Position numbers and translations under genes: made by a program | NCBI GenBank assembly: GCA_963663405.2 | Contig: CAXXSM010000147.1 | Location: 1 to 40,016 of the forward strand | Origin: a bacterium | GTDB lineage: Bacteria > Hinthialibacterota > Hinthialibacteria > Hinthialibacterales > Hinthialibacteraceae | DNA: 40,016 nucleotides | Reading direction: 5' to 3' | Part shown: positions 2,343 through 39,476 of the stretch, one piece after another | Layout: each line of letters opens with the position of its first letter | Position numbering within the stretch: position 1 is the first letter of the stretch | Notes under the pieces: generated by a model | Databases searched by the model: none | Told to the model about the DNA's origin: nothing | Seen by the model: the letters and a program-made list of their open reading frames with translations, nothing else

Positions 2343-2348
2343 TGAGTT

Positions 2349-3500: not shown

Positions 3501-3639
3501 ATTTTAAATTAAATTAAAAATCTAAAATAATTGAATCGCCTCTTTCCCTCACTAGAAAAATATATTAAAATAATCCCCAAAAAAAACGATCATTATGTGA
3601 ATACAAAAAAAATACTCTAAAAATATCGATTACAACTAT

Positions 3640-7062: not shown

Positions 7063-7080
7063 AAATGAAGAGGTGATGAA

Positions 7081-7947: not shown

Positions 7948-7981
7948 GCAATTATTTGGATATTCAAAATGGTGAACCATT

Positions 7982-17017: not shown

Positions 17018-17581
17018 ATGAACAACCAACAAAAGGAATCTGCAATACAGAGAACAACTCCACAGAATTTGGTCTGTGCCTGCAAGGGGATGATTGATGA
17101 TACGATTGAGAAACTCGGGAAACAGCTGGAGCAAGGTATTTCCTTTGAAATGAGACGGTATTTGAAAACCATGTCCCTATTTCCTCAATTTTCTCTTGGC
17201 AATCAAATCCTCATTCTCAAACAAAAACCTTCCGCCACTCACGTAGCCGGATTTCGAGTCTGGAAACGGCTAAACCGGTATGTCCGCAAAGGCGAGAAAG
17301 GAATCAGGATTTTGGCTCCTTGCAAAATTCGTAAAAAGAATCCTGAAGAGAACAAAACCATCGAGATGGAGCGTCACAACGAAAATGATGAAGAGGAAGA
17401 ATTGTTGGTTGGATTCCGGATTGTGCATGTATTTGATGAATCGCAAACGGGCGGTAAAAAAATACCACAACCATCCACTAACTGTTTTTCTATGAAAAAT
17501 TTTATATTCTTGGCTCTAACACCTTGTGATACTTCTACTTGCAACCTGTTGGATAGAGGAGTGGTGAGAAATCCGGGCTAA
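17018..17581 (+). CDS. ArdC-like N-terminal ssDNA-binding domain protein (antirestriction family), probably C-terminally truncated
   Basis: FSLGNQILI..Q.P.ATHVAGF..WKRLNRYVRKGEKGIRILAP and VFDESQTGG; no HEXXH metalloprotease-like domain follows. Confidence 0.78.
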   Translation: MNNQQKESAIQRTTPQNLVCACKGMIDDTIEKLGKQLEQGISFEMRRYLKTMSLFPQFSLGNQILILKQKPSATHVAGFRVWKRLNRYVRKGEKGIRILAPCKIRKKNPEENKTIEMERHNENDEEEELLVGFRIVHVFDESQTGGKKIPQPSTNCFSMKNFIFLALTPCDTSTCNLLDRGVVRNPG

Positions 17582-18323: not shown

Positions 18324-20425
18324 CGGTCCATCCCCACGTGCGTGGGGAATACCGTGAAATCGAAGGTCTTTTATCCCGGCTGTCCGGTCCATCCCCACGT
18401 GCGTGGGGAATACTATTCGTTATCTCTTCGTTAATCGCTTCGATCCGGTCCATCCCCACGTGCGTGGGGAATACTCCTTGCGTCAGGCATTGATCCAGAT
18501 GATATTCGGTCCATCCCCACGTGCGTGGGGAATACCCGGCGCGCCATAAATAATTCCCTTCACCATCCGGTCCATCCCCACGTGCGTGGGGAATACTCTT
18601 TAATGTTATATGATTTTATGTACTGTTTCGGTCCATCCCCACGTGCGTGGGGAATACCGGGCGCGACGCTGATCTTACGCGCTTCCTCGCGGTCCATCCC
18701 CACGTGCGTGGGGAATACAATAGGCACACGAGCAACATGGAGAATGTTTTCGGTCCATCCCCACGTGCGTGGGGAATACCGGCAAGCGATTTTCGCGATG
18801 AGCTCGACTCACGGTCCATCCCCACGTGCGTGGGGAATACTATAATTCTATTAAATATAAAACACCTATCCTCGGTCCATCCCCACGTGCGTGGGGAATA
18901 CGTATGCTTGAGCTTTCGTGGCTAACGAGAGAGCGGTCCATCCCCACGTGCGTGGGGAATACCCGGTCGATTGCGTGATTGAGCGATCGGACTACGGTCC
19001 ATCCCCACGTGCGTGGGGAATACGTAATAGTCTTTGCTTCATCCTATGGTCAATACGGTCCATCCCCACGTGCGTGGGGAATACTTGACTTGCTGCTCCC
19101 ACTGCCCTCGCTCGCTCGGTCCATCCCCACGTGCGTGGGGAATACGCGCAGATCGGTCATCGTTGGTTTTCGGTTCTCGGTCCATCCCCACGTGCGTGGG
19201 GAATACATGAGATGGCCGGATCGGATGAGGGGTCTCTACGGTCCATCCCCACGTGCGTGGGGAATACAAGCCGCCGTAAATACGGTCAACTTCCACCGGC
19301 GGTCCATCCCCACGTGCGTGGGGAATACAATAAAATCAACTTCCAAATCATCTACGTAATCGGTCCATCCCCACGTGCGTGGGGAATACGAATCTGACTC
19401 GCTCTATTTTTTTAGTTCTCTCGGTCCATCCCCACGTGCGTGGGGAATACCTTGGCGACCGACGTCGATGGAACTGCGCTTCCGGTCCATCCCCACGTGC
19501 GTGGGGAATACCAGGCCAACCATTGAAGTGGTTCATCACTATCCGGTCCATCCCCACGTGCGTGGGGAATACATGGGCTTCCTGGGGCAACAGAGAATGT
19601 AGGTCGGTCCATCCCCACGTGCGTGGGGAATACGTCAAACCATTACCGGCGATTTGAAAATTATTCGGTCCATCCCCACGTGCGTGGGGAATACATGTAG
19701 CGTCTGGCCAAATATTATTAACAATCCGGTCCATCCCCACGTGCGTGGGGAATACTTGACGAAAAAACAAAAAAATGGATTGACGACGGGTCCATCCCCA
19801 CGTGCGTGGGGAATACGCACCGAAACCTAGCCGTAGCGCATCCAACGCCGGTCCATCCCCACGTGCGTGGGGAATACTTTTTCTTCCGTTATCTTATCCA
19901 TCTGCACTTCGGTCCATCCCCACGTGCGTGGGGAATACGTGTTTCCTGTTTTGCCGCTTCTAAATGTAAATGGTCCATCCCCACGTGCGTGGGGAATACT
20001 TTCGGTCCCTACGGCGGGGGAGGGGGATTCTCGGTCCATCCCCACGTGCGTGGGGAATACTATAATATCACTCTATCGATTTCTTGAATATACGGTCCAT
20101 CCCCACGTGCGTGGGGAATACACGTCCCGATCTACCAATATAGTCCAACGACGCGGTCCATCCCCACGTGCGTGGGGAATACCGCATATAAAGTGTACGC
20201 GAAGCGGGCAGAGACGGTCCATCCCCACGTGCGTGGGGAATACAGCTGTTCTTTCGTTGTCGCGTCCTGAAAGCCCGGTCCATCCCCACGTGCGTGGGGA
20301 ATACTCATCAAGAATTAAAATCATCTCCGAAGCATACGGTCCATCCCCACGTGCGTGGGGAATACTTATCAAAAACGTCGCTTACAATTTTCCCGACGGT
20401 CCATCCCCACGTGCGTGGGGAATAC
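18324..20425 (-). CRISPR. Type I-E CRISPR array, 35 repeats and 34 spacers
   Basis: 29-bp repeat GTATTCCCCACGCACGTGGGGATGGACCG (plus strand CGGTCCATCCCCACGTGCGTGGGGAATAC), 61-bp period; spacers are 32 bp except the leader-proximal one (31 bp). Confidence 0.99.
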
Positions 20426-24957: not shown

Positions 24958-26391
24958 GGTTCATCCGGAAATTGGGTCAAAGACTTCATAAAAAGAGAGG
25001 ACAGGCTTAACTCTCCTAACTGGTTAAAGATAAAAAAGGAGAGCAAGCATGTCCACGAGTTCATTATATCATAATGTGGGAATCCGAGGCTACAAATATG
25101 TGAGAACCGAGTATGTGAAAGGAAAAACCCAAGTTACAATCACTCAAGATCTGGAGAAGTTACAGTGTGCGACGTGTGGTTCTTACGACGTCCATCCGCG
25201 GGGTTCGAGAGTCCGAACATTCAAAGCGCCACCGTGGGGTTCAAGAAGCATGGAAATTGTCTTTGCCATTCCACGAGTCGAGTGTGAAAACTGTGGCGAA
25301 TATCGGCAAGTCAAGATACGATTCGCCGATCCACAACTGAGTTATACCCGGAGTTTTGAGCGCTATGTTCTCGATCTATCGCAGAGCATGACCATCCAGG
25401 ATGTGGCCACCCATTTGGGCGTGAGATGGGATATGATCAAAGAGATTCAAAAGAGAAATCTTCAGCGCAAATATGCCCGTCCCAAGTTGAAGCATCTGCG
25501 GCGCCTCGCCATCGATGAAATTGCGATCGCCAAGGGGCATACCTATGTAACAATCGTCATGGATCTGGAGAGTGGAGCGGTTGTTTTTGTCGGAGACGGA
25601 AAGGACGTGGAGGCGCTCAAACCCTTCTGGAAACGGCTTCGTTCGTCTCGCGCCAAGATAGAAGCCGTCGCGATGGATATGGGCCCCGCCTATATCAAAG
25701 CGGTGACAGCCAACTTACCGGACGCCACCATCGTGTTCGATCATTTTCATGTGATCAAACTCTTCAATGAGAAATTGACCCAGTTGCGCCGGGCGTTGTT
25801 TCGGAAAGCCAAGAAAGAAGACAAGAGTGTTCTGAAAGGGATTCGGTTTTTACTGCTGAAGAATCCGGACAATTTGAACTCGGAACGTGAGGAAAAAGAA
25901 CGTCTCCAAGCCGCCTTAAAACTGAACAAACCTTTGGCCATTGCGTATTACATGAAAGAAGAACTTCGCCAGTTCTGGAGCCAAGCCAATTGGTGGAAAG
26001 CAAACATGTATTTGACGAGTTGGATCAATCGAGCCATCGCCTCGGGAGTCCGCATGCTGAAGAAATTTGCCAAGACGTTGGAGACTCATCGTCAAGGTCT
26101 ACTGGCTTACTACAGGTTTTCTATTTCAACCGGTCCTTTAGAAGGGACAAATAACAAAATTAAAACGATGAAACGCCAAGCATATGGATTTCGAGATCAT
26201 GAGTTTTTTAAACTCAAAATTCTGGGAATTCATGAAACCAAGTACAAGTTAGTCGGGTGATAGCAATTACCACATGGTTGAGGTCAAGGTCATTTTTTTC
26301 GAAGAAATTTGAATGGATTGAACTTGGAAATAGGCTAAAACAGACAAATTTCCTAAGAAAAAACGCAATGCGCCCAATTTCCGGATGAGCC
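24958..26391 (+). mobile_element. ISL3-family IS inserted in the 3' end of cas8e
   Basis: TIRs GGTTCATCCGGAAATTGGG and CCCAATTTCCGGATGAGCC (18/19); imperfect 8-bp flanks AGAAGAGA and TAAAGAGA. Confidence 0.92.
25049..26260 (+). CDS. ISL3-family transposase
   Basis: Zn finger CATC..CENC, AIDEIA, AMDMGPAY, VFDHFHV, STGPLEGTNNKIK..KRQAYGFRD. Confidence 0.96.
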   Translation: MSTSSLYHNVGIRGYKYVRTEYVKGKTQVTITQDLEKLQCATCGSYDVHPRGSRVRTFKAPPWGSRSMEIVFAIPRVECENCGEYRQVKIRFADPQLSYTRSFERYVLDLSQSMTIQDVATHLGVRWDMIKEIQKRNLQRKYARPKLKHLRRLAIDEIAIAKGHTYVTIVMDLESGAVVFVGDGKDVEALKPFWKRLRSSRAKIEAVAMDMGPAYIKAVTANLPDATIVFDHFHVIKLFNEKLTQLRRALFRKAKKEDKSVLKGIRFLLLKNPDNLNSEREEKERLQAALKLNKPLAIAYYMKEELRQFWSQANWWKANMYLTSWINRAIASGVRMLKKFAKTLETHRQGLLAYYRFSISTGPLEGTNNKIKTMKRQAYGFRDHEFFKLKILGIHETKYKLVG

Positions 26392-27876
26392 TAAAGAGAT
26401 ACTCAATTGACGATACGCTTCCGCCGCAGCCCGTATCGAACGTGCGGAACCATCTAGGCCGTCAACCGTCTGTTTCAGACTATCAAACGCTGTCTTACGT
26501 AGGACATCACACCACTTCTCTTGAGCAGCCTCGTCATCCTTAGGAAGATCGCGGTAGAGTTTAAAAAATGGCTCCTCCAAAGTGGACCAATAGATAGTGA
26601 TAGCGGGGAAACTTTCCTTCATTTGTTTTACCTGCTTCAGATCGGGTTTGCGTTTATTCTCATTAAAAGGATAAAGTAGTTTTTGGGCGAGTGTTTTTGT
26701 AACTTGGTGCAGTGTATCTTCTATTTTTTCGGCGTAATAAATGGCTGTTTCTAAATAGGCTACTAAATTGTCATGTTTTAAATAAGCGGTAGGAAAAGGG
26801 AGACGTTCATGTCGCCAAATAAAAATTTTATTGTTCTTATTATCTGTTCCAAAAACGTTCAACTGTGTTTGAGTAGTATCTGTTTCCGCGAGCAGATCAA
26901 GAATGGCAGGATAACGATCTTTTCTATTGATTATCAACGAAGCCAATGCGGATGAATCACGCCATAAGGCTTTTTCTTTATCAATGGAAATAGGATCATA
27001 TCCTTTTTTTTCACTGCGTCTATAGAACAACATTGGATCAAAGGTGTTTTCTGTCCATTCCTTATCCGGTTTTTTGTTGGGTTTAATGTATATTTTTCTT
27101 ATGATTGGAAACTGGTCATTAATAAGAAAAATACGACGATATTGCCATGTTAGATACGACAAATAACCAGAAGGGATATCGGTTTCAGGTGGAGTTGTAC
27201 GTTCCCAAGAAGGTTTATCATCTTTTATCTTAGGGAATGGGAGATCACTATTGTATTGACATAGGTTATATAGAAGAGTATCAAAAAGATCAGAGCCATA
27301 CACAAAAACCGTTGCTCCTCTTGTCAATGCTGATTGGCAATATCCCGAACCATCTTGAAGCGCAAATATCTGATTCGAAACAAGCAGACGGCTTGCAATG
27401 GAATATGAAATTGAAGGAGGAGAGTCATCCATAGTATGATCGAATAGCGTCGCATTATTCCCCGATGAGTATTCACGTGCAATTTGTACAATGCTTGACA
27501 TTTCTATCTTTTTTTCATTCAGTAATTTCGGATCTTGAAAGAAAGGATGCTCTCCGAAAAGATCAAAGCGGCTTTGAATGGAATTTCCTTCGTCGTCAGT
27601 TGAATGTAAATATTGATCAATTATAGATGGATCAAATATTCCTTTCTGTTTGATTGCCTTCCATTCAGCGATGGATTTTGGGCCATCATAACTCCGATGA
27701 AGAAACGCAAGTAATAATCTCAATATTGATAACGTCACCAGCGGCGAGTTATCCAACACTTCCCGCAGTTCATGCGCATTGAGCAACGTCTCGCGAAGCC
27801 CCAGTTCAATGTATTCTCCATTTCGGCGAAGGCAGGGAATCCACGGTTCATTGATCAGATTGAAGGATTCTTTCAT
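26353..27876 (-). CDS. cas8e: Cas8e/Cse1/CasA; last 12 codons are derived from the ISL3 end
   Basis: SFNLINEPWIPC, RFDLF..HPFFQ, SGNNATLFDH, YLTWQYRRI, KALWRD. Confidence 0.92.
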   Translation of the reverse strand: MKESFNLINEPWIPCLRRNGEYIELGLRETLLNAHELREVLDNSPLVTLSILRLLLAFLHRSYDGPKSIAEWKAIKQKGIFDPSIIDQYLHSTDDEGNSIQSRFDLFGEHPFFQDPKLLNEKKIEMSSIVQIAREYSSGNNATLFDHTMDDSPPSISYSIASRLLVSNQIFALQDGSGYCQSALTRGATVFVYGSDLFDTLLYNLCQYNSDLPFPKIKDDKPSWERTTPPETDIPSGYLSYLTWQYRRIFLINDQFPIIRKIYIKPNKKPDKEWTENTFDPMLFYRRSEKKGYDPISIDKEKALWRDSSALASLIINRKDRYPAILDLLAETDTTQTQLNVFGTDNKNNKIFIWRHERLPFPTAYLKHDNLVAYLETAIYYAEKIEDTLHQVTKTLAQKLLYPFNENKRKPDLKQVKQMKESFPAITIYWSTLEEPFFKLYRDLPKDDEAAQEKWCDVLRKTAFDSLKQTVDGLDGSARSIRAAAEAYRQLSISLGSSGNWAHCVFS

Positions 27877-30568
27877 AGTCGTCTCCTTTCCGGGTAAGAA
27901 CGACGCCTAGCTTTTCATCCAGGCTGATCGGGATATTTGGATTTACTGGCTTGCTATCTTTTAAAACTACCATTCGTGAGTGGCGGAGCAGCTGATGGCG
28001 CTTCCATTCGGGTGGAATCATATTCTCGGGAAAATCGGATGGACATCCGCAATACGAGAGCGTGACGGATGACTCGATCAGAAATTGTTCGCGTTCACGG
28101 CGTTTTGTTTCATCCTGTGGAAGGACCTTCTCCGATTCATCACGCAAACAAACAATGGACACGGACGGGGGCCCCAAGCGGGTTCGCGCTTGCAATTGTT
28201 TATGTTTTTCAGGATTGTCTTCATCTAATTCAGGATTCCACTGTGTCAAAACGTTTTCACGTTCAGGTAAAGGAATCACACATCCCCTTCCCGCTTGTTC
28301 TTCTCTTTTGCGCTTGCTTTCACAAGCAAGACGAGTTTCTTCCAGTTGAACCTTCAGAGAAGAGGAGCAATCGATATCGCCTTCTCCATAAACAGACTCG
28401 ATCAACGCTTCCACATCACCGGGGATATGAATATGGTTTCGTGAATGGATAGCCAACCATGTGCGGAGGAGGATATATTCATCGTATACGGAACGACTCA
28501 CGAGGGGATCGGATAACTCATGCCCCTTTGGTTTAAGCACGCTCAAGCATGGTTTCTCAAAGCCTGACGGACGTCTTGCTTTCTTATGCCGGTGCATTCG
28601 TCCCGATCGTTGCAGAAGCAGATCAACCGGAGCCAGTTCTGTGATCATCCAATCAAAATCCAGATCAAGGCTCTGTTCAACAACTTGCGTAGCCACAAGT
28701 ATGGCGCGGTGTGGTCGATGATCCCGCTCTTTGCCAAAGCGCTCTAAAACTTGTTTCTCAATGTATAAACGCTGTTTCAGTGGGAATCGCGCATGAAACA
28801 AAGTCAGTTCAATACCAGAATCACCAAGATGATTCAACAAGGCAGTGAACGCTTCCTGAGCGCGATGAACGCTATTAAGGATCCAGACAGCGCAGCCACC
28901 ATTCGCAAGGCGGGATTCAAGAATTAAGACGAGTCGATCGATATCATCATCAAGCCATTCGAGTTCAAACTCGGTTATACGATCTTCTGTCACATCGATT
29001 GCATGAGTGTTAATTCCAGCGTTCGATGAAAACGTAGTCAAACGGGGATAGGGAGTTTCGTTGATACTCACATTATGCCCTGCATATGCGGTTAAGAGTT
29101 TGTGACGAGTGGAATTTGGTAAAGTTGCCGAGAGAATAATGACGGTTGTGCCAAGCTGACCCAACCAGGAAAGCAATCGCTCGAAAAGCGAAAGCATGTA
29201 CGTATCGTAGGCGTGGACCTCATCGAAGATGAGTGTTTTATCTGCCAAACCGTAAAGCCGGACGGGGCCATGACGAACCTGCATTACTGAAAGAAGTGAT
29301 TGATCAACGGTTCCCACCGCAAAAGGCGCGAGAAAGCCCCGCTTGGATTTAGTAAACCATTCATGAGCGATCAGGCCGCTGGTGTTTTCTTTCTCGTCTG
29401 GATTAATGCTTGCGATTTGCAACGATTTGTAGTCCTGATTCAATTCACGATGACTATGCAACAAAAGTAAATTGAGAATTGAATCGTCGTAACGGTTTTC
29501 CAAAAATGACTTCGTTCGAGAAAATAATTGATTACTCGCGGCCATTGTAGGAAGGGCGAAATACGCGCCCGCCTGTTTGTTTGCTATACTCCACAGGTCT
29601 TGTAAGTAAAGCGCCGCTTCGGTTTTCCCTTCGCCCATCGGCGCCTCGATGATGACAAAACGAAGACCTTCTATCTTGTTTCCAATTTCTATAGTCTTTT
29701 GTTGCAATGGCCGGGGGATAATCGTATGAGGAAACAGCTCCCTAAACGGCTTAGATGCGCAAGGAAGTTCCCAACCGCTCCAATGAAATTCCTGCAAAAC
29801 ACGATTCGCTATATCTTTCGCTTTTTCATAGTATGAAACGGGATCATTGGCTGTAGAGACGTAGTGAAAATGGTTCTCCATTGATCCGATCCAATCGGCC
29901 ACGGCGGTTAATCCCGCGAGCAATATAGGAGTAGCATTATCTCTCGGATCGATCCGAGGAATCATTTCTAGATCTGGGTGAATCGTTTCAAGGAGATGGA
30001 CAACTATCGATTTACGGATCTTTCGCCAATCATTTTTATTCGGCGCGCTTTGATGTTCGGCAAGCGATAATTGTCTTTTTGCTTGGGGTAGTTGGGTTGG
30101 TGTAGGAAAAACGCCGTGATGACCGCCAAGAACAGCGGATAGTTTTTTTACTGTATTGTCATCAATTCGAGTTTGAGCGTCACTGAGCGCTTCTTTCAAT
30201 GAAACAGCAGTAATAAGGCCATGCTGTTGAGGGTTACAATACTTCGGTTCTTTGAACTTTGCGTCATCTAAAGAACGTTTCACAAATTCTGGAATTGGTT
30301 TCATAAATTGGAAGAAAGGATTGGCTTTCCCTAAATCATGCAATGATACGATGTACGCGATCCATGGAATCGCTGTATTATTGGCTATCTTCAATCCTTC
30401 CGCGATTCGTTCGGTTGGAGAGCGGCCCCGCACTGAGTGGCAAAGGCATTCACAGACCGCTGCGGTATCAAGCATGTGATGGATTAACGCGTGGCTTTGT
30501 CCATTTGAATCCTTCTTTGCCCAAAGAATTTTTAGTAGGGATGTTTCATCATTCGTATGCCAAACCAT
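27848..30568 (-). CDS. cas3: Cas3 HD nuclease-SF2 helicase
   Basis: LIHHMLD, HDLGK, GHHG, APMGEGKT, DEVH, SAT, HARF, ATQVVEQSLD, QRSGRMHRH. Confidence 0.97.
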   Translation of the reverse strand: MVWHTNDETSLLKILWAKKDSNGQSHALIHHMLDTAAVCECLCHSVRGRSPTERIAEGLKIANNTAIPWIAYIVSLHDLGKANPFFQFMKPIPEFVKRSLDDAKFKEPKYCNPQQHGLITAVSLKEALSDAQTRIDDNTVKKLSAVLGGHHGVFPTPTQLPQAKRQLSLAEHQSAPNKNDWRKIRKSIVVHLLETIHPDLEMIPRIDPRDNATPILLAGLTAVADWIGSMENHFHYVSTANDPVSYYEKAKDIANRVLQEFHWSGWELPCASKPFRELFPHTIIPRPLQQKTIEIGNKIEGLRFVIIEAPMGEGKTEAALYLQDLWSIANKQAGAYFALPTMAASNQLFSRTKSFLENRYDDSILNLLLLHSHRELNQDYKSLQIASINPDEKENTSGLIAHEWFTKSKRGFLAPFAVGTVDQSLLSVMQVRHGPVRLYGLADKTLIFDEVHAYDTYMLSLFERLLSWLGQLGTTVIILSATLPNSTRHKLLTAYAGHNVSINETPYPRLTTFSSNAGINTHAIDVTEDRITEFELEWLDDDIDRLVLILESRLANGGCAVWILNSVHRAQEAFTALLNHLGDSGIELTLFHARFPLKQRLYIEKQVLERFGKERDHRPHRAILVATQVVEQSLDLDFDWMITELAPVDLLLQRSGRMHRHKKARRPSGFEKPCLSVLKPKGHELSDPLVSRSVYDEYILLRTWLAIHSRNHIHIPGDVEALIESVYGEGDIDCSSSLKVQLEETRLACESKRKREEQAGRGCVIPLPERENVLTQWNPELDEDNPEKHKQLQARTRLGPPSVSIVCLRDESEKVLPQDETKRREREQFLIESSVTLSYCGCPSDFPENMIPPEWKRHQLLRHSRMVVLKDSKPVNPNIPISLDEKLGVVLTRKGDDYERILQSDQ

Positions 30569-30646
30569 TGTTTTACTTCCTATTTATTACATGGCGATTC
30601 TTACCATAAAGGCTCCAAATAATGTTTGAAAATAGTGAAGGACAGA

Positions 30647-33600
30647 CTAACCGGACTTAGACTGGGCCAATTCGAGAATGCGTTCCTCGGCGATCTGATA
30701 GGCGTCGATGATTGACCGGGTTCCCCGGATTGGTTGAACTGTTTTTTCACGAACCATACAGAATTCACCTATGATTTGACCGGGTAGCCGGTTGATGATG
30801 TCAAGACCGTGTTCACTAAGCATTGGTTTCAACTTTGCTAGCGCTGGATTTTCGCGGATACGACCAAGGAACCATGTTTGGATATTATCCCTGCATTTAT
30901 AATCAAAATCCGCTGGGCTTTGCGAGGCAAGAAATATCCCCAATCCCGCCGAACGCGCCCGTCGTAAGAGATTTTCCATCGGTTCCTTCGTGGATGGTTT
31001 GCGCGTGGCGGGAAGATAGAAGTCGGCTTCATCCAGCATGAGAACCGCTTGAAGACGTTTAGATGGATGTCGGCTGGACCAGCGCTCCATTTCTACTAAA
31101 AATCGCGCCATCCAGAATTCAAGATCTCTCATATCGGTTAAAAACTTAAGGCTGATGATCGTCAGGCGAGATCGCTTAGCCGAAGAAGGTGGTTCCAGCA
31201 ATGCGTTAATATTCAATAATTCCCCACTGGATTGCAGCATCTTGCCTTTCATAATCTGCAGCATTTGTAAATCACTCGCCAACTTACCAAATAGTTTGAT
31301 GTCCAAATGCCCAATAGCCTGCACTAATGCTGTATCTTTTTCATTGATAAAATTCATCAGAGTATCGAGATTTAATTCCTTATCTTTTTCCAACTGACTG
31401 AGCGTTGAGATGGCTTGTAAAAGAATGGCGAGTTTCTGTTTTTGATTATTGCTGGATATCCGATAATCCATCATTGAACCCAGAGCGTACGCGGCGTAAT
31501 GGGCGATGTTTTCACGCTCATTATCAGACACGTCTGATAAATCACCCGGCATCAAAGGAATGGATAACGAACGTCCCTCAATATGGCCAGGTGTAAAAAG
31601 ATCCACTTGGATGGCGTCTCTTAATTTCCGTCTCTGTTCGATACTGGAAGAATCATCCATAGGACGCTCCCATGCGGAAGGATCGGCGTAGGAACAGAGA
31701 TCCCCTTTCCGGTCGATCAAAATCACGGGTAATCCCTGTAAGAGTAATTGCTCGATGATGGTCAATGCCAGAGTTGTCTTTCCACTTCCCGTCCCTCCCA
31801 AAAAGGCAGTGTGACGGGTTAGTTCCTGGGGATTCAACGTGATCGGTTCCGCGGCGCGACTATTGCTGTATCCCAGTTGGATTAGACTGGTTTTGCTTGG
31901 TTCCAGTTTCGATTTCTTCGGTTGAGCAGAAGGTGGGGTGGTGGGTATATCCTTTTGTGATGTTGTTCCTTTAACCGGCAGTATTCCATCCGTGATATTC
32001 AGAATTTTTTTGATACTTTCCAAACGGGTCAAAGGACGTTGATGTCTCCGCCAGTTGGGAAACTCTGGTTTATCCTGGTGCATTTCGAGGAATTTCTCAA
32101 ACGCGATCATCGCGCGCCAATCTGAATCTTCGATAGTAATCCGGCGCGCGCCATGAGTGATTAATTCTCCAATGTAATTTGCGATTTTACTTTTCGGATT
32201 TTTTGAATAGGGTGTATTTCGAGCAATGATGATTTTTCGGCCATTCGCAGCTGCTTCCAATCCTTCAATTTCACGCTTTAGCCCTCCACCACGCGCGTCT
32301 TTAAGACACAAGCCTATGATCATTGCTTCGTTCCAGCCGTCTAACTTTATGGTTGATCCTTGATTAATGGCATTGATCTTAATCCCCTTACCTAGTTCTT
32401 CACTACTCTGATTTAGCGCCGAAGAGAGAACTTTTGCAAGAATTTCAGCTTCCACAGGTGGCGCCTCTGAGTATTGACTCAAGAAATCATTCCATACTGA
32501 TTCCAAATTGTCTTCTGTCGGGGGTATTACCTTACGATCTCCGGGCCATCTCTCTGGTGATGTACCATATTCAATCCAATGTTCACGGTATTGTCGACAC
32601 TGGTCGATGATATCCCGCGTTCTCATCCTCTCAAGAAAACTAAGCGATTCGATGGGATAGGGATAACATGGATTATCTTCATCTATGGATAATTCAGCCC
32701 ATTCATATAAGTAACGTAAACGGAGTTCGATGATACGTTGAATCTCTTCGAGATTTCGCTGGTTGGATAGAAGAATAGGTTTCGGATCTTCTTCAATGCG
32801 GTCAAGTCTAGATCGGGTGAGTCCGCTTCGTAAATCGGTGTAATAATCTTCTAAACAGCTTACTACGATAACGCTGGAGGGAACACGATCACTGATCTCG
32901 CAAACGGCGGTCATGGCTTTTTGGAATTTCTCCGCCGCGTTTTCTAAGTTGTAAATATCCTCCAACTGATCAAGGCAGATCACGAGCGCGGCCTGTTCCA
33001 CGCGTTGAATTAGGATCCCTAGTTGTTGAACAATACGAATAGCGTCCCCATCTTCTGTCATGGGAACAATATCTCCTAAAAACCGCCGATCTCGTAACGA
33101 GAGATCGTGTCCACGAAGAAACTGATAGACACACGTATGTATTTTGTTACTACTGGTCTGCAGGTAAATAAGAGCATTGACAATTCGTGGATCAATTTCT
33201 AAAAAATCCTCTTGTTCTATGGCCATGTCAGCGATGTCATGAATTAATTCACTGAGCGATTGTCCTTCGAGTTCATCTGAACGTAATTGAGATACTCGAT
33301 CAGAAAATCGGTTTCGATTCAACTCGTCATGTTCAAAACCGTTCCGAATGGATTCGAGTAGCGCATTGGATAACCGTAAAAGTCCATTCTGTTCAGAGCG
33401 AGATGGATCGAAGGCCATATTGAGAGAATGGATTAAATTACTGAGGATATAACGGCCGTAATTTGATACATCACTACTCATCTGCATATAGCCGAAATAC
33501 CCCAGATTCCGGCTGTGCGCCACATTCCGGAAGGCTCGCATCAGATGGGTTTTACCCGATCCAGCTTCTCCTTTGATCAAAAGTATCTTTCCAAATTGTC

Positions 33601-33802
33601 GATAGGGGGGGCACGTTGCGCGTGATAGCAAACGATCAAAAATATCACGCGCATCCGCATGGATTTCTTCTACATCGAAAGGATCCTCATTCCATATTTC
33701 TTGATAATGAGCAACCGAATAAAAAATCTCAGGGGCGTTTGGATTACAGAATGCATTCAGACGAGAATCGGTTTGGTGGGGATCATTCTGTCGATCATTC
33801 AT
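30647..33802 (-). CDS. Double P-loop ATPase: N-terminal AAA-like domain plus C-terminal HerA/FtsK-like domain
   Basis: Walker A GEAGSGKT with Walker B VICLDQLE; second HTAFLGGTGSGKT, ILIDRKGD, LMLDEAD, RARSAGLGIFLASQSP. Confidence 0.85.
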   Translation of the reverse strand: MNDRQNDPHQTDSRLNAFCNPNAPEIFYSVAHYQEIWNEDPFDVEEIHADARDIFDRLLSRATCPPYRQFGKILLIKGEAGSGKTHLMRAFRNVAHSRNLGYFGYMQMSSDVSNYGRYILSNLIHSLNMAFDPSRSEQNGLLRLSNALLESIRNGFEHDELNRNRFSDRVSQLRSDELEGQSLSELIHDIADMAIEQEDFLEIDPRIVNALIYLQTSSNKIHTCVYQFLRGHDLSLRDRRFLGDIVPMTEDGDAIRIVQQLGILIQRVEQAALVICLDQLEDIYNLENAAEKFQKAMTAVCEISDRVPSSVIVVSCLEDYYTDLRSGLTRSRLDRIEEDPKPILLSNQRNLEEIQRIIELRLRYLYEWAELSIDEDNPCYPYPIESLSFLERMRTRDIIDQCRQYREHWIEYGTSPERWPGDRKVIPPTEDNLESVWNDFLSQYSEAPPVEAEILAKVLSSALNQSSEELGKGIKINAINQGSTIKLDGWNEAMIIGLCLKDARGGGLKREIEGLEAAANGRKIIIARNTPYSKNPKSKIANYIGELITHGARRITIEDSDWRAMIAFEKFLEMHQDKPEFPNWRRHQRPLTRLESIKKILNITDGILPVKGTTSQKDIPTTPPSAQPKKSKLEPSKTSLIQLGYSNSRAAEPITLNPQELTRHTAFLGGTGSGKTTLALTIIEQLLLQGLPVILIDRKGDLCSYADPSAWERPMDDSSSIEQRRKLRDAIQVDLFTPGHIEGRSLSIPLMPGDLSDVSDNERENIAHYAAYALGSMMDYRISSNNQKQKLAILLQAISTLSQLEKDKELNLDTLMNFINEKDTALVQAIGHLDIKLFGKLASDLQMLQIMKGKMLQSSGELLNINALLEPPSSAKRSRLTIISLKFLTDMRDLEFWMARFLVEMERWSSRHPSKRLQAVLMLDEADFYLPATRKPSTKEPMENLLRRARSAGLGIFLASQSPADFDYKCRDNIQTWFLGRIRENPALAKLKPMLSEHGLDIINRLPGQIIGEFCMVREKTVQPIRGTRSIIDAYQIAEERILELAQSKSG

Positions 33803-34836
33803 GATTGTACTCCTGGGATTCGGATAAAGTGGTAACGCGCATTGAGATATGACGTTTCGGATTCAGCGACATCCTGTTGAGGCATGGCCTCGACCAAGTC
33901 GGCGCGGCTTAATTGCAGTAAGTTCTTACGATGGGCTTGAATTAAATGTTCTTTAAACGTGGCTATGCTAATTGAACGATTGGGAAATCGTTCCTGATAA
34001 CAACGAAAGGCATGCGAGATGAATATTTTTTCCCTGCCAAACCAACCTGTTGAAGATTGACGAGCGGTATCGATCACCTCGTGGACAAAATCATGAATTT
34101 TGATCTCATCTCTGTGGATCAATTCTTCAGGCAATTGCGTTGTTCCGTGACCGGTGGTCTCATCTAACCAATAGCGGATCACCGCCAAACGAAGTCCGGT
34201 TTTGTCACTGCGCCGTGCCTGGATCGCTTTTGCCGCCACTTGCTCCTTAAGTTGGCTAAAAGCCGCTGGTTGATCCAGATCTAATACACGACTGAGCAGA
34301 AGTTCTTTCACCGCTGTCAAACTGAATTTTTTATTAGTATCCACTCCAAGTTCTTTCCACAAAAGCGCGTCGAGGGTTTGTGTCTCTGTTGGAACTTTCG
34401 CAATGGGCAGGTCATAATGACGACGAAGAATGATCGCCCGAAGCCCGCCTACTGAAGAGATACGTTTGCGCGTTTCGGAATCGATATGCTGAAGGTTAAA
34501 TACACGAGGGATAAGATATTTCTCTTGAAGCGAAGACCAAACCAGTCCAGGGGGCAGAGATGTTAATCCGAGAAAATCGAGTGAGATCTGGAATCCTTCG
34601 GCGCTTAACTGAGGGCGGATACTCCTTCCGCTTTTCTCTTCTGTGATTAATCTACGACTGGTTAGATACTCCCATCGCTTATTGAACAGTTCAGACCAGC
34701 CTGAGCCACGAAGACGGTGTTCGAGAAAAATACCTATATCCTTTTGAACTTTGTTCGTAGTTAGTCCGGTTTTTCCTGGAATCAAAAGACGCACAAGAAT
34801 CAGCTGGTCAATGGAACTCAGTGAATCATTGTTCAT
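33799..34836 (-). CDS. Hypothetical protein, possibly with winged-helix domains, translationally coupled to the ATPase
   Basis: 345-aa ORF; RBS AAAGGA; ATGA overlap with the ATPase; N-terminal L.SRRLI....LSAEG resembles a wHTH wing. Confidence 0.75.
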   Translation of the reverse strand: MNNDSLSSIDQLILVRLLIPGKTGLTTNKVQKDIGIFLEHRLRGSGWSELFNKRWEYLTSRRLITEEKSGRSIRPQLSAEGFQISLDFLGLTSLPPGLVWSSLQEKYLIPRVFNLQHIDSETRKRISSVGGLRAIILRRHYDLPIAKVPTETQTLDALLWKELGVDTNKKFSLTAVKELLLSRVLDLDQPAAFSQLKEQVAAKAIQARRSDKTGLRLAVIRYWLDETTGHGTTQLPEELIHRDEIKIHDFVHEVIDTARQSSTGWFGREKIFISHAFRCYQERFPNRSISIATFKEHLIQAHRKNLLQLSRADLVEAMPQQDVAESETSYLNARYHFIRIPGVQS

Positions 34837-34949
34837 TCTGTCATTTCCTTTCTGTATTCAAATACACATTCGATTATCGAATCGATTATCGTTTCCAGAT
34901 TTGTGACAACGAGTATGTTCGAGAGCATTGGCCATGGAAGAGAGTGTTT

Positions 34950-35042
34950 TACCATACGCGAAATAGCAACCCAATTGTCATGCAATTAAATCCATGGCCC
35001 GTTTTCATTATTGCGTGGCGCTGTATGCGCATAATATTGCAT
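34950..35042 (-). pseudogene. Possible degraded Cas3-HD-like N-terminal fragment
   Basis: RBS GGAG then MQYYAHTAPRNNENGPWI*LHDNWVAISRMV, resembling the YYAHS..WQxLxDHL start of Cas3 HD domains. Confidence 0.45.
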
Positions 35043-35205
35043 TGGATTTTCTCCATGAATTATTAACATGCCCAATAGTCAAGTGAGTGATAATAACATA
35101 TAGCAGAAGCACTTTTAAGAATAAATCAACTAAATGTAGGTATAATTTACAGGAATTGAATTCCCCTGATTTAACTTGTATCTAGTTGGGTACAACTCAT
35201 TATGC

Positions 35206-36693
35206 TCAAATGCTGAATATTGAGAGATGGCAGAGTGAATCCGAATACCACACACCCGATCCTGTCATATCATTACTCTGAATGATCAATTCATTCCCCA
35301 ATCCTATAGATGAATCCGCTAGTTCAATTTCCTGGGAGACTTTTTCAATGAATTTATCGGTGGAGTGAAAAGGCGTCTCCTCTTTTTGATCGGGATCGCA
35401 AATGGCTTCCATGAAATACGAATCGGCTAACCGATCCCAACATTGTTGAAAAATGGCAGGAGAATCAAAACAATCCATTCCAATGATCTTTTTGCCTCTG
35501 CAAACTAAAACACCTGTAGTCTCCTCTGAAAGCGTAAATTTCCCCCGGTATTCTTTAATTCGTTCGTTGGCCTGTTGATAGCCGTCCGTAACCGATTCAG
35601 TAGGCGAAGATGACTTGAGATCGTGAAGATGCGATTCCACGGCTTCCCAGACAGCGCCTTGATCGCTTCGAGCCATTCCCGATTCGGATCGACACGCTTG
35701 GGTGCTTTGCATAGTTCGGCGGCGTAGTGTGGGATGGGCGTAGTGTGTGGCTTCAAATTTATGTGACGCATATTCCCAACGTCCTCGTTCTACACAGCTC
35801 ACAGGAATACGGATATTGCTTTCCGTCGCCACGAGAATGGAGATATTGACGATCCGGTTCTGTTTGGCGCCCGTTAAAATTTCTCCCCCAGGAACCAAGA
35901 CCGGGGAGAATCCATGATTCTGAAGAATGAGTTCGTTCACTTCTCCTTCTTCCGAGACTTCTTCAAGGACAGCGTCTCCCGAATCGAGAGCGCTTTTCAG
36001 CAACACGTATTTGGCAGAGATTCCATTGTTCGGAAAAATAGGGAACAGTGTCAAATTGTGATGATGAATTGGATCTCCTAATCGGAGTTTTTTCAAAACA
36101 TCACGAATCGAGTTAAGAGCGGTATTTCCCAGCCGGTTTTCAATCTCTTTCGCTTTTGAAGGGAATAACGCTAACAGCAGATGCGTTTCGGGGGAAATGA
36201 TGTTTTTAGCCAATGATTCGAGACGTTTGCCCAATCCTCGAATCACGTCCGGCTTCGTGTATTCAGATACTCTTTCAAAGACACTCCGAATTGTTTCTTG
36301 CAACGCTTCCACATCCGTCGAGGGGGTCAGTTTGGGTTGAAGTATATAAGCGCCTTTTTTGGATAGAAAGATTTTCAGTATCACCGGACAGCCTCTGTGC
36401 CGGTGGATCGATTGAGAAATTGATTGTTCGGGGATCCAACCTTCAACAAATATCGCTCCTTTATCGATGAGGGGGGAGAGCCACGATGCAATTTTACGGG
36501 GAATGAATCCAGCGTCATCGAAATCCATATTTTTGACTCGAATCGCATTGGGATCATGCTGGTTATCTGGATCACGTTCCAAATGAACTTCATTCCCTGC
36601 ATTTATGTTCCCTTCCGCATACTGCATTCCAGTAATCTTTGTTTGAATGGATCCTAAATAAACGTCGTGAATAGAATTGGTGGATTGTTTCAT
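35206..36693 (-). CDS. HIRAN domain plus DUF6569/ARPP-1-like domain fusion protein
   Basis: N-terminal ITGMQY..LERDPDNQHDPNAIRV..GFIPR (HIRAN); C-terminal NLTLFPI..GEILTGAKQNRIVN..IPVSCVERGRW..DQGAVW; RBS AGGAG. Confidence 0.8.
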   Translation of the reverse strand: MKQSTNSIHDVYLGSIQTKITGMQYAEGNINAGNEVHLERDPDNQHDPNAIRVKNMDFDDAGFIPRKIASWLSPLIDKGAIFVEGWIPEQSISQSIHRHRGCPVILKIFLSKKGAYILQPKLTPSTDVEALQETIRSVFERVSEYTKPDVIRGLGKRLESLAKNIISPETHLLLALFPSKAKEIENRLGNTALNSIRDVLKKLRLGDPIHHHNLTLFPIFPNNGISAKYVLLKSALDSGDAVLEEVSEEGEVNELILQNHGFSPVLVPGGEILTGAKQNRIVNISILVATESNIRIPVSCVERGRWEYASHKFEATHYAHPTLRRRTMQSTQACRSESGMARSDQGAVWEAVESHLHDLKSSSPTESVTDGYQQANERIKEYRGKFTLSEETTGVLVCRGKKIIGMDCFDSPAIFQQCWDRLADSYFMEAICDPDQKEETPFHSTDKFIEKVSQEIELADSSIGLGNELIIQSNDMTGSGVWYSDSLCHLSIFSI

Positions 36694-36999: not shown

Positions 37000-39441
37000 C
37001 TACCCTTCTTTTTCGGACACTACTACAGCGGCATCACCGGACATTTCGGCGTTTTTGTATTGCTCGTGAAAACGTAAAACAAGACCTCGGTTTCCCCACC
37101 ACAAGACTTTATTCATCCCGTTAGCCATTCTCTCATCAAGCATCTGGGCGACCCGTCGCTCCAAATCATTCCCGTTGGTATCAAGCAATGTAAGTATTAA
37201 ATTTCCTTTGGCATCTTGCTCTAAAGTAAAGTTCCGTTTTTCGAAAAGTAAACAACGCATCGTTTGTAAAGTGGTTTTATTGCCGTCTTCATGGTGATAG
37301 TATTCGCCTCCGACGTCTTTCAGAAAGTATTCGTAACTCAAACGTGCAATCATCACACAGTAGAACTCAAATTCGATTTTCTCTGGATCACTGCCATACA
37401 TTTCATCAAGAAAGTAACTGTAAACCAAATCTTTTAATCCGTTTTCTATCAACCAGCGATATCGATATTTTTGTAACAGATCCTTTGAGGACAGACTCGT
37501 GTTTGTGCTGCCAAAACAGCGAATATTTTTCCGGGTTTCAAGATCTCTAAGAATGACAATTTGCAGGGGGAGTCGTGTTTTTGGAAGCGTGACCTGTATG
37601 GTTTTGATTTCATCTTCATTATCCCACTTTTCCCATTCCTCTTTAGATTCCAAAGCCGGCGCAATCAGTTTTTTGATCTGCCGGTTTTTTTTCAAGCAGA
37701 GATAAACCTCCCCATTGGCGCAACGAACCTGTTTGAAATATTGCAGGCTGGCTTCTTTGGTATATTCCGAATCCATGTAGATCTCGCGGATAGCCAGTGG
37801 ATCCAAAAGAGGAAAGATATGGTGTTCACAGTATTGCTCCACAATGCCTGGCGCTCTCACACCTCCTTGATAATAACAGATCGATAGAATTGTGTTCTTC
37901 GCCAAATCCCAGGCGACATGAGGGCGGAATCCTGGAACCAAATCCCCTGATTTATCCGGCCCTTTGCCGATCCCTTTTTCTTGACCGCGTTCCCCGAAAA
38001 ACCGTTTAAAATGGAAATCAAACGCGATTTTCATCCCTTCGATCAGTCCCAATTCTTTGGCCCGATTGATCAGATCACAACGCAGAGCATGTAATTGATC
38101 AAATTTGAATTCCAGAGTATCCTGATAATATCTTGACCGGGTTCCAAATAGACCCAGACCACTGGCAAAAGCCACGGAACGATCCCGATTGTTGCTCAAA
38201 TGGTTAATGCGGCGGTAGCCTCCGACAATACGGAACACATTCAATAAAGCCAGATTGGTCAGCTCCTGACCTCTCAACCGCGCCGGGCCATAACTCTCCA
38301 TGGCCTGTACAATCCCCAGATCATTGACAAACGGCGCCAGCAAAAGCGGTCCCGGATCGCACAAATGGTAGGCGTGAGTCTGCATTTTTTGGCAGATCAA
38401 TTCAAAGTGGCGATTGATTCGCCGGGAGTCCAAAAGGGATTGTTCGGAGTAGAGATGGTAGGCGCTGGATCGACTTGGGAATGGTTGATCCTCCGTGCGA
38501 ATTTCTCTCGGGAAATATTGGTCCAACGTGATGGGGTGACGTTTTTTGTTCGTCAAATCCCAGTGCTTGAATACTCGATTGACCGCAAATCGTGAACAAC
38601 GCAATTTCAGTGCATTGACAATTTGCTGGGCGGACCAGTCTGGATAGCGTAACTTTTTGAGGAGAATATTGAGTTCGGTTTCACTGCTCATGGGATCTTT
38701 CCCGACGCTATACGCCGGGAGAACGGCCCATGGCCCCCAAAGACGATAATCTTTTACAAGCCGGTAATAGCTGGTTAGCGAGACCGCAAACTGGGAACAA
38801 GTCTCTTTGACGGCAAGAGAAGGATTGAAGAACAACTCTCGTACTAATTCCAAACGCATGTGACAGGAATCCTGATCACTGAAAAAGGTTTTTCTCCGCT
38901 GCTTTTTGTCCCGTTCTTGCCTGCCGCTTTTCTTCAGTCTTCCCAGTTGCTTGAGGATGCGTTGGATGCGATCCCAGAAATAGCTGTCCGCTGGTTGATC
39001 AGAAACGGAGCGGCCGTATGACGCCAAGATTTGTGCAATGCAGTCAATATCAGCCTCCTTTTGTGTTAAGGGAAGCGCTTCGGCTATCCGCAACATGGCT
39101 TGCTGTGAAAGAGAGGAACGCGCCTCACTGACCAAAAGGACCAGTTGTTCCAAATCGGCGAAAGACGCAGCGGGTTTGATTTCAGGAAACAAACCGAGTA
39201 GGCCATATTTCACAAACAAATCTTCCTTTTCGTAATACTGCGAACGCGAAATCTTATACTTGTGGCAAATGCTTTGGATGGAAACTCTTTCAATCCATAC
39301 TTCACGAATGATCTCATAATTTCTGACAATCGGATCGTCCTCCAAGAAATAAGGCGTAGAACTCGCATGCTGAGCCATCCCTTGAGTGACTTTGGCTTGT
39401 AAACCCTTGAAATATTCTCTGCATTTCGGTGATAGAATCAT
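37000..39441 (-). CDS. Large DDE transposase with tandem N-terminal HTH modules (likely start ATG 39441)
   Basis: HTHs ICHKYKISRSQYY and TCSQFAVSLTSYYRL; catalytic-like AFDFH, YMDSEY, YRYRWLIENGLKDL. Confidence 0.8.
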   Translation of the reverse strand: MILSPKCREYFKGLQAKVTQGMAQHASSTPYFLEDDPIVRNYEIIREVWIERVSIQSICHKYKISRSQYYEKEDLFVKYGLLGLFPEIKPAASFADLEQLVLLVSEARSSLSQQAMLRIAEALPLTQKEADIDCIAQILASYGRSVSDQPADSYFWDRIQRILKQLGRLKKSGRQERDKKQRRKTFFSDQDSCHMRLELVRELFFNPSLAVKETCSQFAVSLTSYYRLVKDYRLWGPWAVLPAYSVGKDPMSSETELNILLKKLRYPDWSAQQIVNALKLRCSRFAVNRVFKHWDLTNKKRHPITLDQYFPREIRTEDQPFPSRSSAYHLYSEQSLLDSRRINRHFELICQKMQTHAYHLCDPGPLLLAPFVNDLGIVQAMESYGPARLRGQELTNLALLNVFRIVGGYRRINHLSNNRDRSVAFASGLGLFGTRSRYYQDTLEFKFDQLHALRCDLINRAKELGLIEGMKIAFDFHFKRFFGERGQEKGIGKGPDKSGDLVPGFRPHVAWDLAKNTILSICYYQGGVRAPGIVEQYCEHHIFPLLDPLAIREIYMDSEYTKEASLQYFKQVRCANGEVYLCLKKNRQIKKLIAPALESKEEWEKWDNEDEIKTIQVTLPKTRLPLQIVILRDLETRKNIRCFGSTNTSLSSKDLLQKYRYRWLIENGLKDLVYSYFLDEMYGSDPEKIEFEFYCVMIARLSYEYFLKDVGGEYYHHEDGNKTTLQTMRCLLFEKRNFTLEQDAKGNLILTLLDTNGNDLERRVAQMLDERMANGMNKVLWWGNRGLVLRFHEQYKNAEMSGDAAVVVSEKEG

Positions 39442-39447
39442 GCCTGA

Positions 39448-39476
39448 ATTATACCATGCTAAACGCAACAAATCAA
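39448..39476 (-). promoter_or_regulatory. Sigma70 promoter of the large transposase (leaderless)
   Basis: TTGATT-17 bp-TATAAT, ATG 6 nt downstream, no SD. Confidence 0.6.

Follow-up and report, generated by a model that had tools for sequence, protein, structure and literature searches.

A pair of genes lying directly upstream of a type I-E cas3 gene in a bacterium of the Hinthialibacteraceae appears to be what is left of a conserved operon of three genes. The pair was found in a stretch of 40,016 nucleotides (nt), hereafter called the window (contig CAXXSM010000147.1 of assembly GCA_963663405.2), and consists of gene B, coding for 345 amino acids (aa), and gene C, coding for a double ATPase of 1051 aa; the third gene, A, is found in relatives and codes for a presumed nuclease. 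In our reading the window holds the B-C remnant of an unnamed A-B-C operon, and the intact module serves conflict or anti-phage defence as an accessory system that combines a HerA-type ATPase with a nuclease (probability about 0.6). Put more broadly, A-B-C is most likely a module for conflict or defence that targets DNA and is patchily distributed, with a defence role at roughly 55-60%. A preliminary description of this DNA had presented the B-C pair as a candidate new defence system, either standing alone or ancillary to Cas3/Cascade. The conserved, unnamed and coupled unit that it recognized is borne out by our data; its completeness and a general CRISPR accessory role are not.

Genes B and C belong to a conserved three-gene operon

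A scan of species representatives (185,579 in the collection) returned 296 stretches that encode a relative of gene C, of which we fetched the best 80; counts over 81 loci include the window. In 77 of the 80 loci, six-frame searches with a hidden Markov model (HMM), which matches the B of the window with E 1.5e-129, placed gene B directly 5' of gene C in the same orientation; in the remaining 3 loci gene C begins at a contig end. The median projected distance between the stop of B and the start of C is 2 nt (n=79), so that the conservation and tight coupling of the pair, as first proposed, hold across the family. By clustering of the neighbouring genes a third gene, A, emerged directly 5' of gene B in most loci, with a median distance of -4 nt between the stop of A and the start of B (n=53). 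To count it we used those fetched loci in which at least 1250 nt precede gene B, 65 in all: gene A is intact in one frame in 42 of them, covers at least 83% of its length in 2-4 frames in 7, is half present in 1, persists as a small remnant in 3 and is absent from 12. The usual form of the system thus has three genes (A intact in 42 and split or partial in 8 of the 65 loci), which speaks against the idea of a complete stand-alone two-gene system in the window, where A has been lost.

Taken together, A-B-C is a conserved, so far unnamed three-gene operon encoding a nuclease, a winged-helix protein and a double ATPase. No model in PADLOC (PADLOC-DB v2.0.0), Pfam or NCBIfam names the trio, and the pair had rightly been described as lying outside the named systems. 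Targeted full-text searches of the literature, with supplements, which may list candidates, outside their scope, returned no description of the trio. The available part of PMC7159879 does not mention DUF559, Vsr or ARPP and has HerA in its reference list only, and HerA, FtsK, DUF559, Vsr and DUF87 are not mentioned in the available part of bioRxiv 10.64898/2026.01.04.697583.

Loci without gene A are scattered over the gene C tree (FastTree, SH-like supports, midpoint root only), on which the A-less state takes at least 9 changes for 'none' plus 4 for 'remnant'. Intact B and C without gene A occur in a Polyangiaceae clade (L059, L062, L067, L074 and L076) and in a planctomycete group (L021, L025, L047 and L052). 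Small fragments of gene A beside an intact B-C pair were also seen in L002, L021 and L029 (Verrucomicrobiota, Isosphaeraceae and Nodosilinea), and those of L021 and L029 represent the 3' end, like the one in the window. We also asked whether a gene of neighbour cluster 6, which precedes B in L021, L047 and L052, could stand in for the effector; this idea was set aside, because L021 keeps a gene A relic between the cluster-6 gene and B.

Gene A encodes a presumed nuclease effector

The product of gene A has ~410 aa, with an alpha/beta domain at its N terminus and a DUF559/Vsr-type endonuclease after it, and carries the name 'DUF559 domain-containing protein' in public records. DUF559 scored above its cut-off in 7 of 7 gene A proteins tested, within the last ~100 residues, where REase_MTES_1575 matches the same 7 proteins more weakly. 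Eleven positions are invariant in 39 aligned gene A proteins (E339, D341, E352, D354, G355, H358, R366, D368, R369, K371 and D372). The AlphaFold2 (AF2) model (pLDDT 90.9, pTM 0.87) was compared with known structures by Foldseek, where none of the matches reached E 0.001: the C-terminal part resembles the Vsr-like homing endonuclease I-Bth0305I (prob 1.00, TMt 0.67, E 0.11), and the N-terminal part is weakly similar to AAA+ proteins (Cdc6 1fnn with E 4.9e-3, then TnsC, HslU and ORC; TM 0.2-0.39). With its conserved residues and predicted fold, gene A is the presumed nuclease effector of the module.

Three further relationships were tried and found wanting. The N-terminal domain of gene A as a paralogue of the N-terminal ATPase of gene C is unsupported (hhalign profile probability 0.2%). 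Genes A and B, joined in single-linkage cluster 1, were rejected as paralogues (BLASTP of L001 A against B, E 8.9), the apparent link being due to over-long calls of open reading frames (ORFs). Likewise, the gene with HIRAN and ARPP-1 domains that lies upstream in the window (HIRAN-ARPP1) was rejected as a diverged gene A (BLASTP E 2.8).

The window has lost gene A

The gene A HMM finds no match in the window, and with gene A of L001 as query no copy was found elsewhere in the genome from which the window comes (82% complete). L001, the closest relative by gene C (73% identity), belongs to another genus (G011) of the same family. By tblastn, residues 390-414 of its gene A match the window at 34910..34836 (52% identity, E 0.002), abutting the start of gene B. 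Anchored at the stop codon, the nucleotide identity to the 3' end of the L001 gene amounts to 54/75 over 34833-34907 and falls to 22/75 over the adjoining 75 nt further upstream. In the frame of this relic the translations align with L001 gene A, with a stop codon further upstream; the catalytic block (IEIDG..H in L001 gene A) is missing from the window.

The order of genes in L001 is HIRAN-ARPP1, A, B, C, a 70-nt gap, cas3, cse1, cas7 and cas6, and the amino acid identities between the window and L001 are 58% for HIRAN-ARPP1, 67% for B, 73% for C, 70% for cas3, 47% for cse1, 71% for cas7 and 74% for cas6. On the gene C tree the window and L001 form a fully supported sister pair, and the L001 island is syntenic and includes gene A; therefore, their ancestor had gene A. 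The island (HIRAN-ARPP1, module and type I-E cas genes) was inherited together with the sister genus, and as judged by sequence comparison the lineage of the window has lost ~1.15 kb of gene A, leaving 24 codons. With gene A deleted, the window carries a decapitated B-C pair.

A stretch of the window on the far side of the deletion is repeated in the same genome: 34970-36524, i.e. the HIRAN-ARPP1 gene and 236 nt of its 3' flank, is duplicated with 92% identity on contig C103 (C103:1-1552; L089), and this repeat ends 62 nt from the point of the gene A deletion. Recombination between the copies in the window and on C103 is a possible cause of the deletion. The C103 copy of HIRAN-ARPP1 reads as two ORFs. 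Within 34908..35205 there is one promoter-like consensus match, at 35118..35090.

Genes B and C of the window are intact

Both B and C are full-length in the window and keep every residue that is invariant in the family. Compared with four or five outgroup sequences, B and C of the window show the same identity as their counterparts in L001, where gene A is retained; e.g. gene C is 45.0% identical to outgroup L003 for the window and 45.0% for L001, and gene B is 42.3% (window) and 41.1% (L001) identical to outgroup L002. The terminal branches of the window and L001 on the gene C tree measure 0.24 and 0.21, respectively. Either gene A was lost recently or B-C is still under constraint, and the scatter of A-less states on the tree makes constraint plausible. 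The pair in the window may be a recent relic, or it may keep an effector-independent role as in the A-less clades. A second, diverged B-C copy without gene A (42-45% identity) was observed on contig C83 of the same genome (L087 1531-5781, minus strand). Its gene C is spread over two overlapping frames (3413-4705 and 1531-3393), and the copy is flanked upstream by a divergent AAA_21 ATPase gene and downstream by a sulfatase gene that is likewise split in two.

These data bear on an alternative in which B-C is a complete, working two-gene system, gene A being optional and its loss immaterial. Such a system would account for the 12 of 65 loci without a trace of A and the 3 with remnants only, for the Polyangiaceae clade and planctomycete group that keep B and C intact, and for a window pair without excess divergence relative to L001. 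However, gene A is present in 50 of the 65 loci, intact in 42 and with tight operon spacing, the ancestor of the window itself had it, and neither B nor C contains a recognizable effector domain. Moreover, the A-less Polyangiaceae couple a NACHT-WD40 gene to C, which suggests that B-C needs a partner, and the split gene C of the C83 copy looks like decay. We therefore regard a self-sufficient pair as unlikely and keep to the B-C remnant of a three-gene module.

Gene C combines two ATPase modules and gene B encodes a predicted winged-helix protein

The preliminary description had seen two intact NTPase modules joined by a Pro/Thr/Lys linker in the large protein, and this proved correct, with the linker at ~aa 611-638. 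The first module matches AAA_22 (1.4e-10) and AAA_16 (5.2e-09) at aa 62-330, and BrxC_BrxD (Pfam) at aa 73-330 with 24.4 bits (cut-off 22.2); the second matches DUF87/HerA (3.1e-14) and HerA_C (1e-09; both Pfam) at aa 643-976. Walker A (G81 G83 K84 T85 and G672 S673 G674 K675 T676) and Walker B (D278 Q279 and D924 E925) of both modules are invariant in an alignment of 18 family members that includes the window and has a mean column identity of 58%. Among the PADLOC models, mad8 gives the best match (1.5e-23, 81.8 bits, aa 661-983) and mad3 also matches (23.1 bits), while the HerA models cover short stretches of gene C only (best E 3.7e-11). Solved chains of HerA (8wiv, 8xau and 9c1m) and YjgR are weak matches. 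We found 1257 relatives of gene C at E<=1e-3, the best 120 of which have lengths of 1031-1279 aa and 41-73% identity and cover at least 97% of the query; public records name the family 'ATP-binding protein' or 'helicase HerA-like domain-containing protein'.

Gene B has no match among the models of Pfam, PADLOC or NCBIfam, consistent with the earlier statement that this partner shows no nuclease or Sir2 motif. Its AF2 model (pLDDT 91.3) is helical and contains multiple winged helices. Foldseek against the PDB gave no match at E<=0.001, the matches being to single winged-helix domains (E >= 0.028), with low-TM rows for MukE/MukF/ScpB; a PDB sequence search with the gene B profile gave nothing below E 0.28, and a search of the ESM Atlas returned unnamed clusters only. 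A C-terminal motif is conserved in an alignment of 30 sequences (R311 A312 D313 L314 ... S326 E327 ... H336 F337). Gene B diverges faster than gene C, and a word-indexed search yielded 36 relatives; searching 1.84 billion cluster representatives with a profile gave 2910 (E<=1e-3), 937 of them reaching E<=1e-30, and almost all are stand-alone proteins of ~330-360 aa. Public records label gene B 'hypothetical protein'. Judging from the predicted model, gene B is a winged-helix protein of an unannotated family.

The module differs from known HerA-based systems

The logic of a HerA-type ATPase with a separate effector, on which the pair had first been compared with known defence systems, fits the A-B-C operon. 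Sir2-HerA and DUF4297-HerA, which Gao et al. 2020 are said to have reported as anti-phage systems, likewise encode a HerA/FtsK-type ATPase beside a separate effector gene. In contrast to these systems, gene C reaches only 20.5 bits on the NCBIfam model HerA_antiphage (NF042943, cut-off 800), and where HerA usually has its own N-terminal region it carries an extra BrxC/BrxD-like ATPase; its partners are the winged-helix B and the DUF559 protein A, with no SIR2 or DUF4297, and the genes number three instead of two. The resemblance to BREX lies in the N-terminal module of gene C, which reaches the BrxC_BrxD model with a marginal score, but BrxC and BrxD are not known to be fused to HerA, and no PglZ, PglX or other BREX gene was found in the 20 window ORFs scanned or among the conserved neighbours.

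Archaeal DNA end resection uses a HerA-type ATPase with a nuclease partner (HerA-NurA), and A-B-C would resemble it in pairing a HerA-family ring ATPase with a nuclease. Unlike in HerA-NurA, the nuclease is of the DUF559/Vsr type, and the distribution is patchy and accessory; gene C scores ~16 bits on the NCBIfam HerA repair equivalogs (cut-offs 800-970), and the Pfam scans of A and B gave no match to NurA.

MADS is an eight-gene operon with a methyltransferase, a kinase and other genes, in which MAD7-MAD8 form an ATPase-nuclease module and which is reported to cooperate with CRISPR-Cas, according to the available part of the source (PMC13662399). The mad8 model matches the HerA-type domain of gene C, though that domain only; by the same partial account of MADS, A-B-C differs in that there is no eight-gene operon and that the methyltransferase, kinase and other MADS genes are not conserved around it. 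The module is thus none of Sir2-HerA, DUF4297-HerA, MADS, BREX and HerA-NurA, and the A-B-C family can credibly be seen as a new variant among the conflict systems based on HerA, with a degraded copy in the window.

Distribution and neighbourhoods

The module spans at least 6 phyla, including Planctomycetota, Myxococcota, Cyanobacteriota, Pseudomonadota and Thermodesulfobacteriota, and large genomes (Myxococcota, Planctomycetota and filamentous cyanobacteria) dominate the hosts. Among relatives of the genome studied here 2 of 30 are carriers, and 2 of 18 within its own family. No other cluster of neighbour genes recurs in more than 8 loci. Such a patchy presence of a self-contained operon, together with the repeated loss of its nuclease gene, speaks for accessory, conflict-like behaviour. 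In four of the A-less Polyangiaceae (L059, L067, L074 and L076) a gene coding for a ~1200-aa NACHT/AAA_16 and WD40 protein lies directly 3' of C, with a 4-nt overlap in L074, and EAD1-trypsin, kinase-AAA_16-TPR and YcaO/TfuA genes are found nearby in the same clade. The B-C core may have the NACHT-WD40 gene as an alternative partner there.

Could B-C, or A-B-C, be an accessory of type I-E CRISPR-Cas that is co-transcribed with cas3 and acts with Cas3/Cascade? The arrangement in the window would allow it: the genes are on the same strand as cas3, the 78-nt gap contains no terminator-like site, and L001 keeps the adjacency with a gap of 70 nt at ~70% amino acid identity. In addition, the MADS system, whose mad8 model matches the HerA domain of gene C (1.5e-23), is said in the available part of PMC13662399 to cooperate with CRISPR-Cas. 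Gene C may thus possibly be co-transcribed with cas3 in the window. However, of the 81 loci only 2, those of the window and L001, have homologues of type I-E cas3, cse1, cas7 and cas6 beside the module, and these two related genomes share one island. The 25 PADLOC families matched most often by the 124 nearest neighbours include no Cas family. Members of the module family are found in many genomes, at sites whose other genes are unrelated, and in the window the cas operon itself is broken between cse1 and cse2 by an ISL3 transposase gene. The proximity to cas3 is a lineage-specific arrangement of the island and not a general CRISPR link; an ancillary Cas3/Cascade module, as formerly suggested, is very improbable. 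A wider version, in which B-C is a modular ATPase platform (a STAND/BrxD-like switch fused to a HerA motor, with a winged-helix adaptor) that plugs into different outputs by lineage (a DUF559 nuclease in most, an NLR-like NACHT-WD40 protein in Polyangiaceae, and Cas3 here after the loss of A, as a HerA-type machine in physical or functional coupling to type I-E interference), also seems quite doubtful to us.

A further possibility is that the module does not serve immunity at all and is a machine for DNA maintenance or repair, such as an end processor resembling HerA-NurA, or else a selfish cassette of the addiction type. The archaeal precedent of HerA with a nuclease in end resection speaks for this, as do nearest neighbours that are mostly ordinary genes, the lack of carriage found on phages or plasmids, and the dominance of large-genome Myxococcota, Planctomycetota and filamentous cyanobacteria among the hosts. 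A presence of 2 in 18 within one family is, however, too patchy for housekeeping repair, the nuclease gene has been lost repeatedly, and neither the repair equivalogs of HerA nor NurA are matched. NLR-like STAND, EAD1-trypsin and CRISPR-Cas genes are associated with the module in independent clades. We hold this alternative to be distinctly unlikely and return to an accessory conflict or anti-phage module as the preferred interpretation.

Layout of the locus

All genes discussed for the module sit on the minus strand of the window (Table 1). The gene pair is as described previously in its sizes, in the ATGA by which the stop of gene B overlaps the start of gene C, in its position on the strand of the cas operon and in its distance to cas3; the absence of an obvious terminator was also reproduced, a consensus pattern scan of the minus strand of the gap having found no terminator-like site. 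Neither gene is a type I-E component, in agreement with the preliminary description. The cse1 gene follows directly after cas3 (Cse1 match 4.4e-83), and the order beyond is an oppositely oriented ISL3 transposase gene, cse2, cas7, cas5 and more ORFs, including a cas1 identified by Pfam Cas_Cas1 (1e-19).

Table 1. Positions of the module, its parts and its neighbours in the window
Feature	Position	Strand	Remarks
HIRAN + ARPP-1 gene	35206..36693	-	Upstream neighbour; Pfam HIRAN 4.7e-19, ARPP-1 3.5e-81
Sequence in place of gene A and upstream region	34908..35205	-	34970-35205 repeated elsewhere; 34908-34969 outside the repeat
Gene A relic	34833..34907	-	Last 24 codons and stop; stop overlaps start of B as ATGA; nuclease core gone
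Gene B	33799..34836	-	345 aa
Gene C	30647..33802	-	1051 aa, double P-loop ATPase
Gene C, N-terminal P-loop module	32798..33670	-	~aa 45-335; AAA_22/AAA_16/BrxC_BrxD-like, STAND-like
Gene C, Pro/Thr/Lys/Ser-rich linker	31889..31972	-	~aa 611-638; between both modules, read from the translation
Gene C, C-terminal HerA/FtsK-type ATPase module	30683..31885	-	~aa 640-1040; DUF87, HerA_C
Spacer between C and cas3	30569..30646	-	78 nt; 70 nt in L001
cas3 (type I-E)	27848..30568	-	Downstream neighbour; Cas3_HD 2.2e-39, PADLOC Cas3e 2e-194

The transposase gene that interrupts the type I-E cas operon lies at 25049-26260 (+) and is of the ISL3 family (DDE_Tnp_ISL3 1.1e-76); the interval between cse1 and cas7 in L001 contains no long gene, just an 80-aa ORF. 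Downstream of the cas genes is a CRISPR array (~18438-20400) with a 29-nt repeat and a period of 61 nt, overlapped by spurious ORFs on both strands, and beside it a small protein that contains the N-terminal domain of ArdC (anti-restriction; 1.4e-09) is encoded at 17018-17581 (+). On the other side of the module, the HIRAN-ARPP1 gene clusters with its L001 counterpart only and is outside the module in other loci; PDC-M03B models of PADLOC match the HIRAN part of its protein only (4.7e-07). Next to it, at 37000-39471 (-), lies a gene for an 823-aa IS4-like transposase with helix-turn-helix domains. Several transposase genes are also located in the first 17 kb of the window, and an adjacent trio at 3640-10684 (+) encodes a 1140-aa kinase with many ankyrin repeats, a LysM protein and a 900-aa fusion of FHA and ABC transporter. 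Homologues of the latter (cluster 4) occur less than 8 kb from the module in L003, L009, L037 and L047, which may be coincidence in these phyla.

Possible function and implications

If A-B-C acts as we propose, the HerA-type domain of gene C would assemble into a ring that binds or translocates DNA, and its N-terminal ATPase could be a switch or sensor. Gene B would be a DNA-binding or adaptor subunit and gene A the nuclease effector that cuts the target. Without gene A, the system of the window would be left minus its presumed effector, and the repeated loss of gene A elsewhere would fit a costly nuclease.

Several points weigh against this reading. A defence role is deduced from domain content and distribution only, and the deletion junction is known from the assembly sequence alone. 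The tallies of A and B are six-frame HMM matches and longest-ORF calls in the best 80 of 296 loci, and a split gene A in metagenome-assembled genomes may be an assembly error. Whole clades keep B-C without A, so that gene A may not be the sole or essential output. The surroundings of the module are mostly ordinary: among the 124 nearest neighbours the commonest Pfam family is Uma2 with 5 proteins, the PADLOC matches are PDC-S03 (4), mad2 (2) and otherwise singletons, and many of the neighbours are housekeeping genes (e.g. RhaA, SHMT and sucrose synthase). The enrichment in defence islands expected from the preliminary description is therefore weak, no Pfam or PADLOC family occurring in more than 5 of the 124. 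Finally, no full-length relatives were found on 72,556 plasmids and 50,697 phage records, so that nothing points directly to carriage by known mobile elements.

For annotation, the pair adjoining cas3 should be labelled neither a new complete system nor a CRISPR accessory. The module is present in ~300 species representatives, mostly large-genome, socially complex bacteria, and cultured carriers (Singulisphaera acidiphila DSM 18658, Nitrosomonas nitrosa, N. eutropha and Archangium) can serve as a source of DNA. In S. acidiphila gene C corresponds to WP_237722709.1 and gene B to WP_015250118.1, and in N. nitrosa (strain Nm90) gene A corresponds to WP_090671689.1 and gene B to WP_107790192.1. 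If A-B-C is immune in function, it would represent a distinct HerA-based architecture, in which a double ATPase places a BrxD/STAND-like module before a second motor, and would also add a Vsr-type nuclease and an unannotated family of winged-helix partners (2910 cluster representatives). That the nuclease gene was lost several times independently while B-C stayed intact amounts to a natural experiment on the cost of an effector and on the role of the ATPase core alone.

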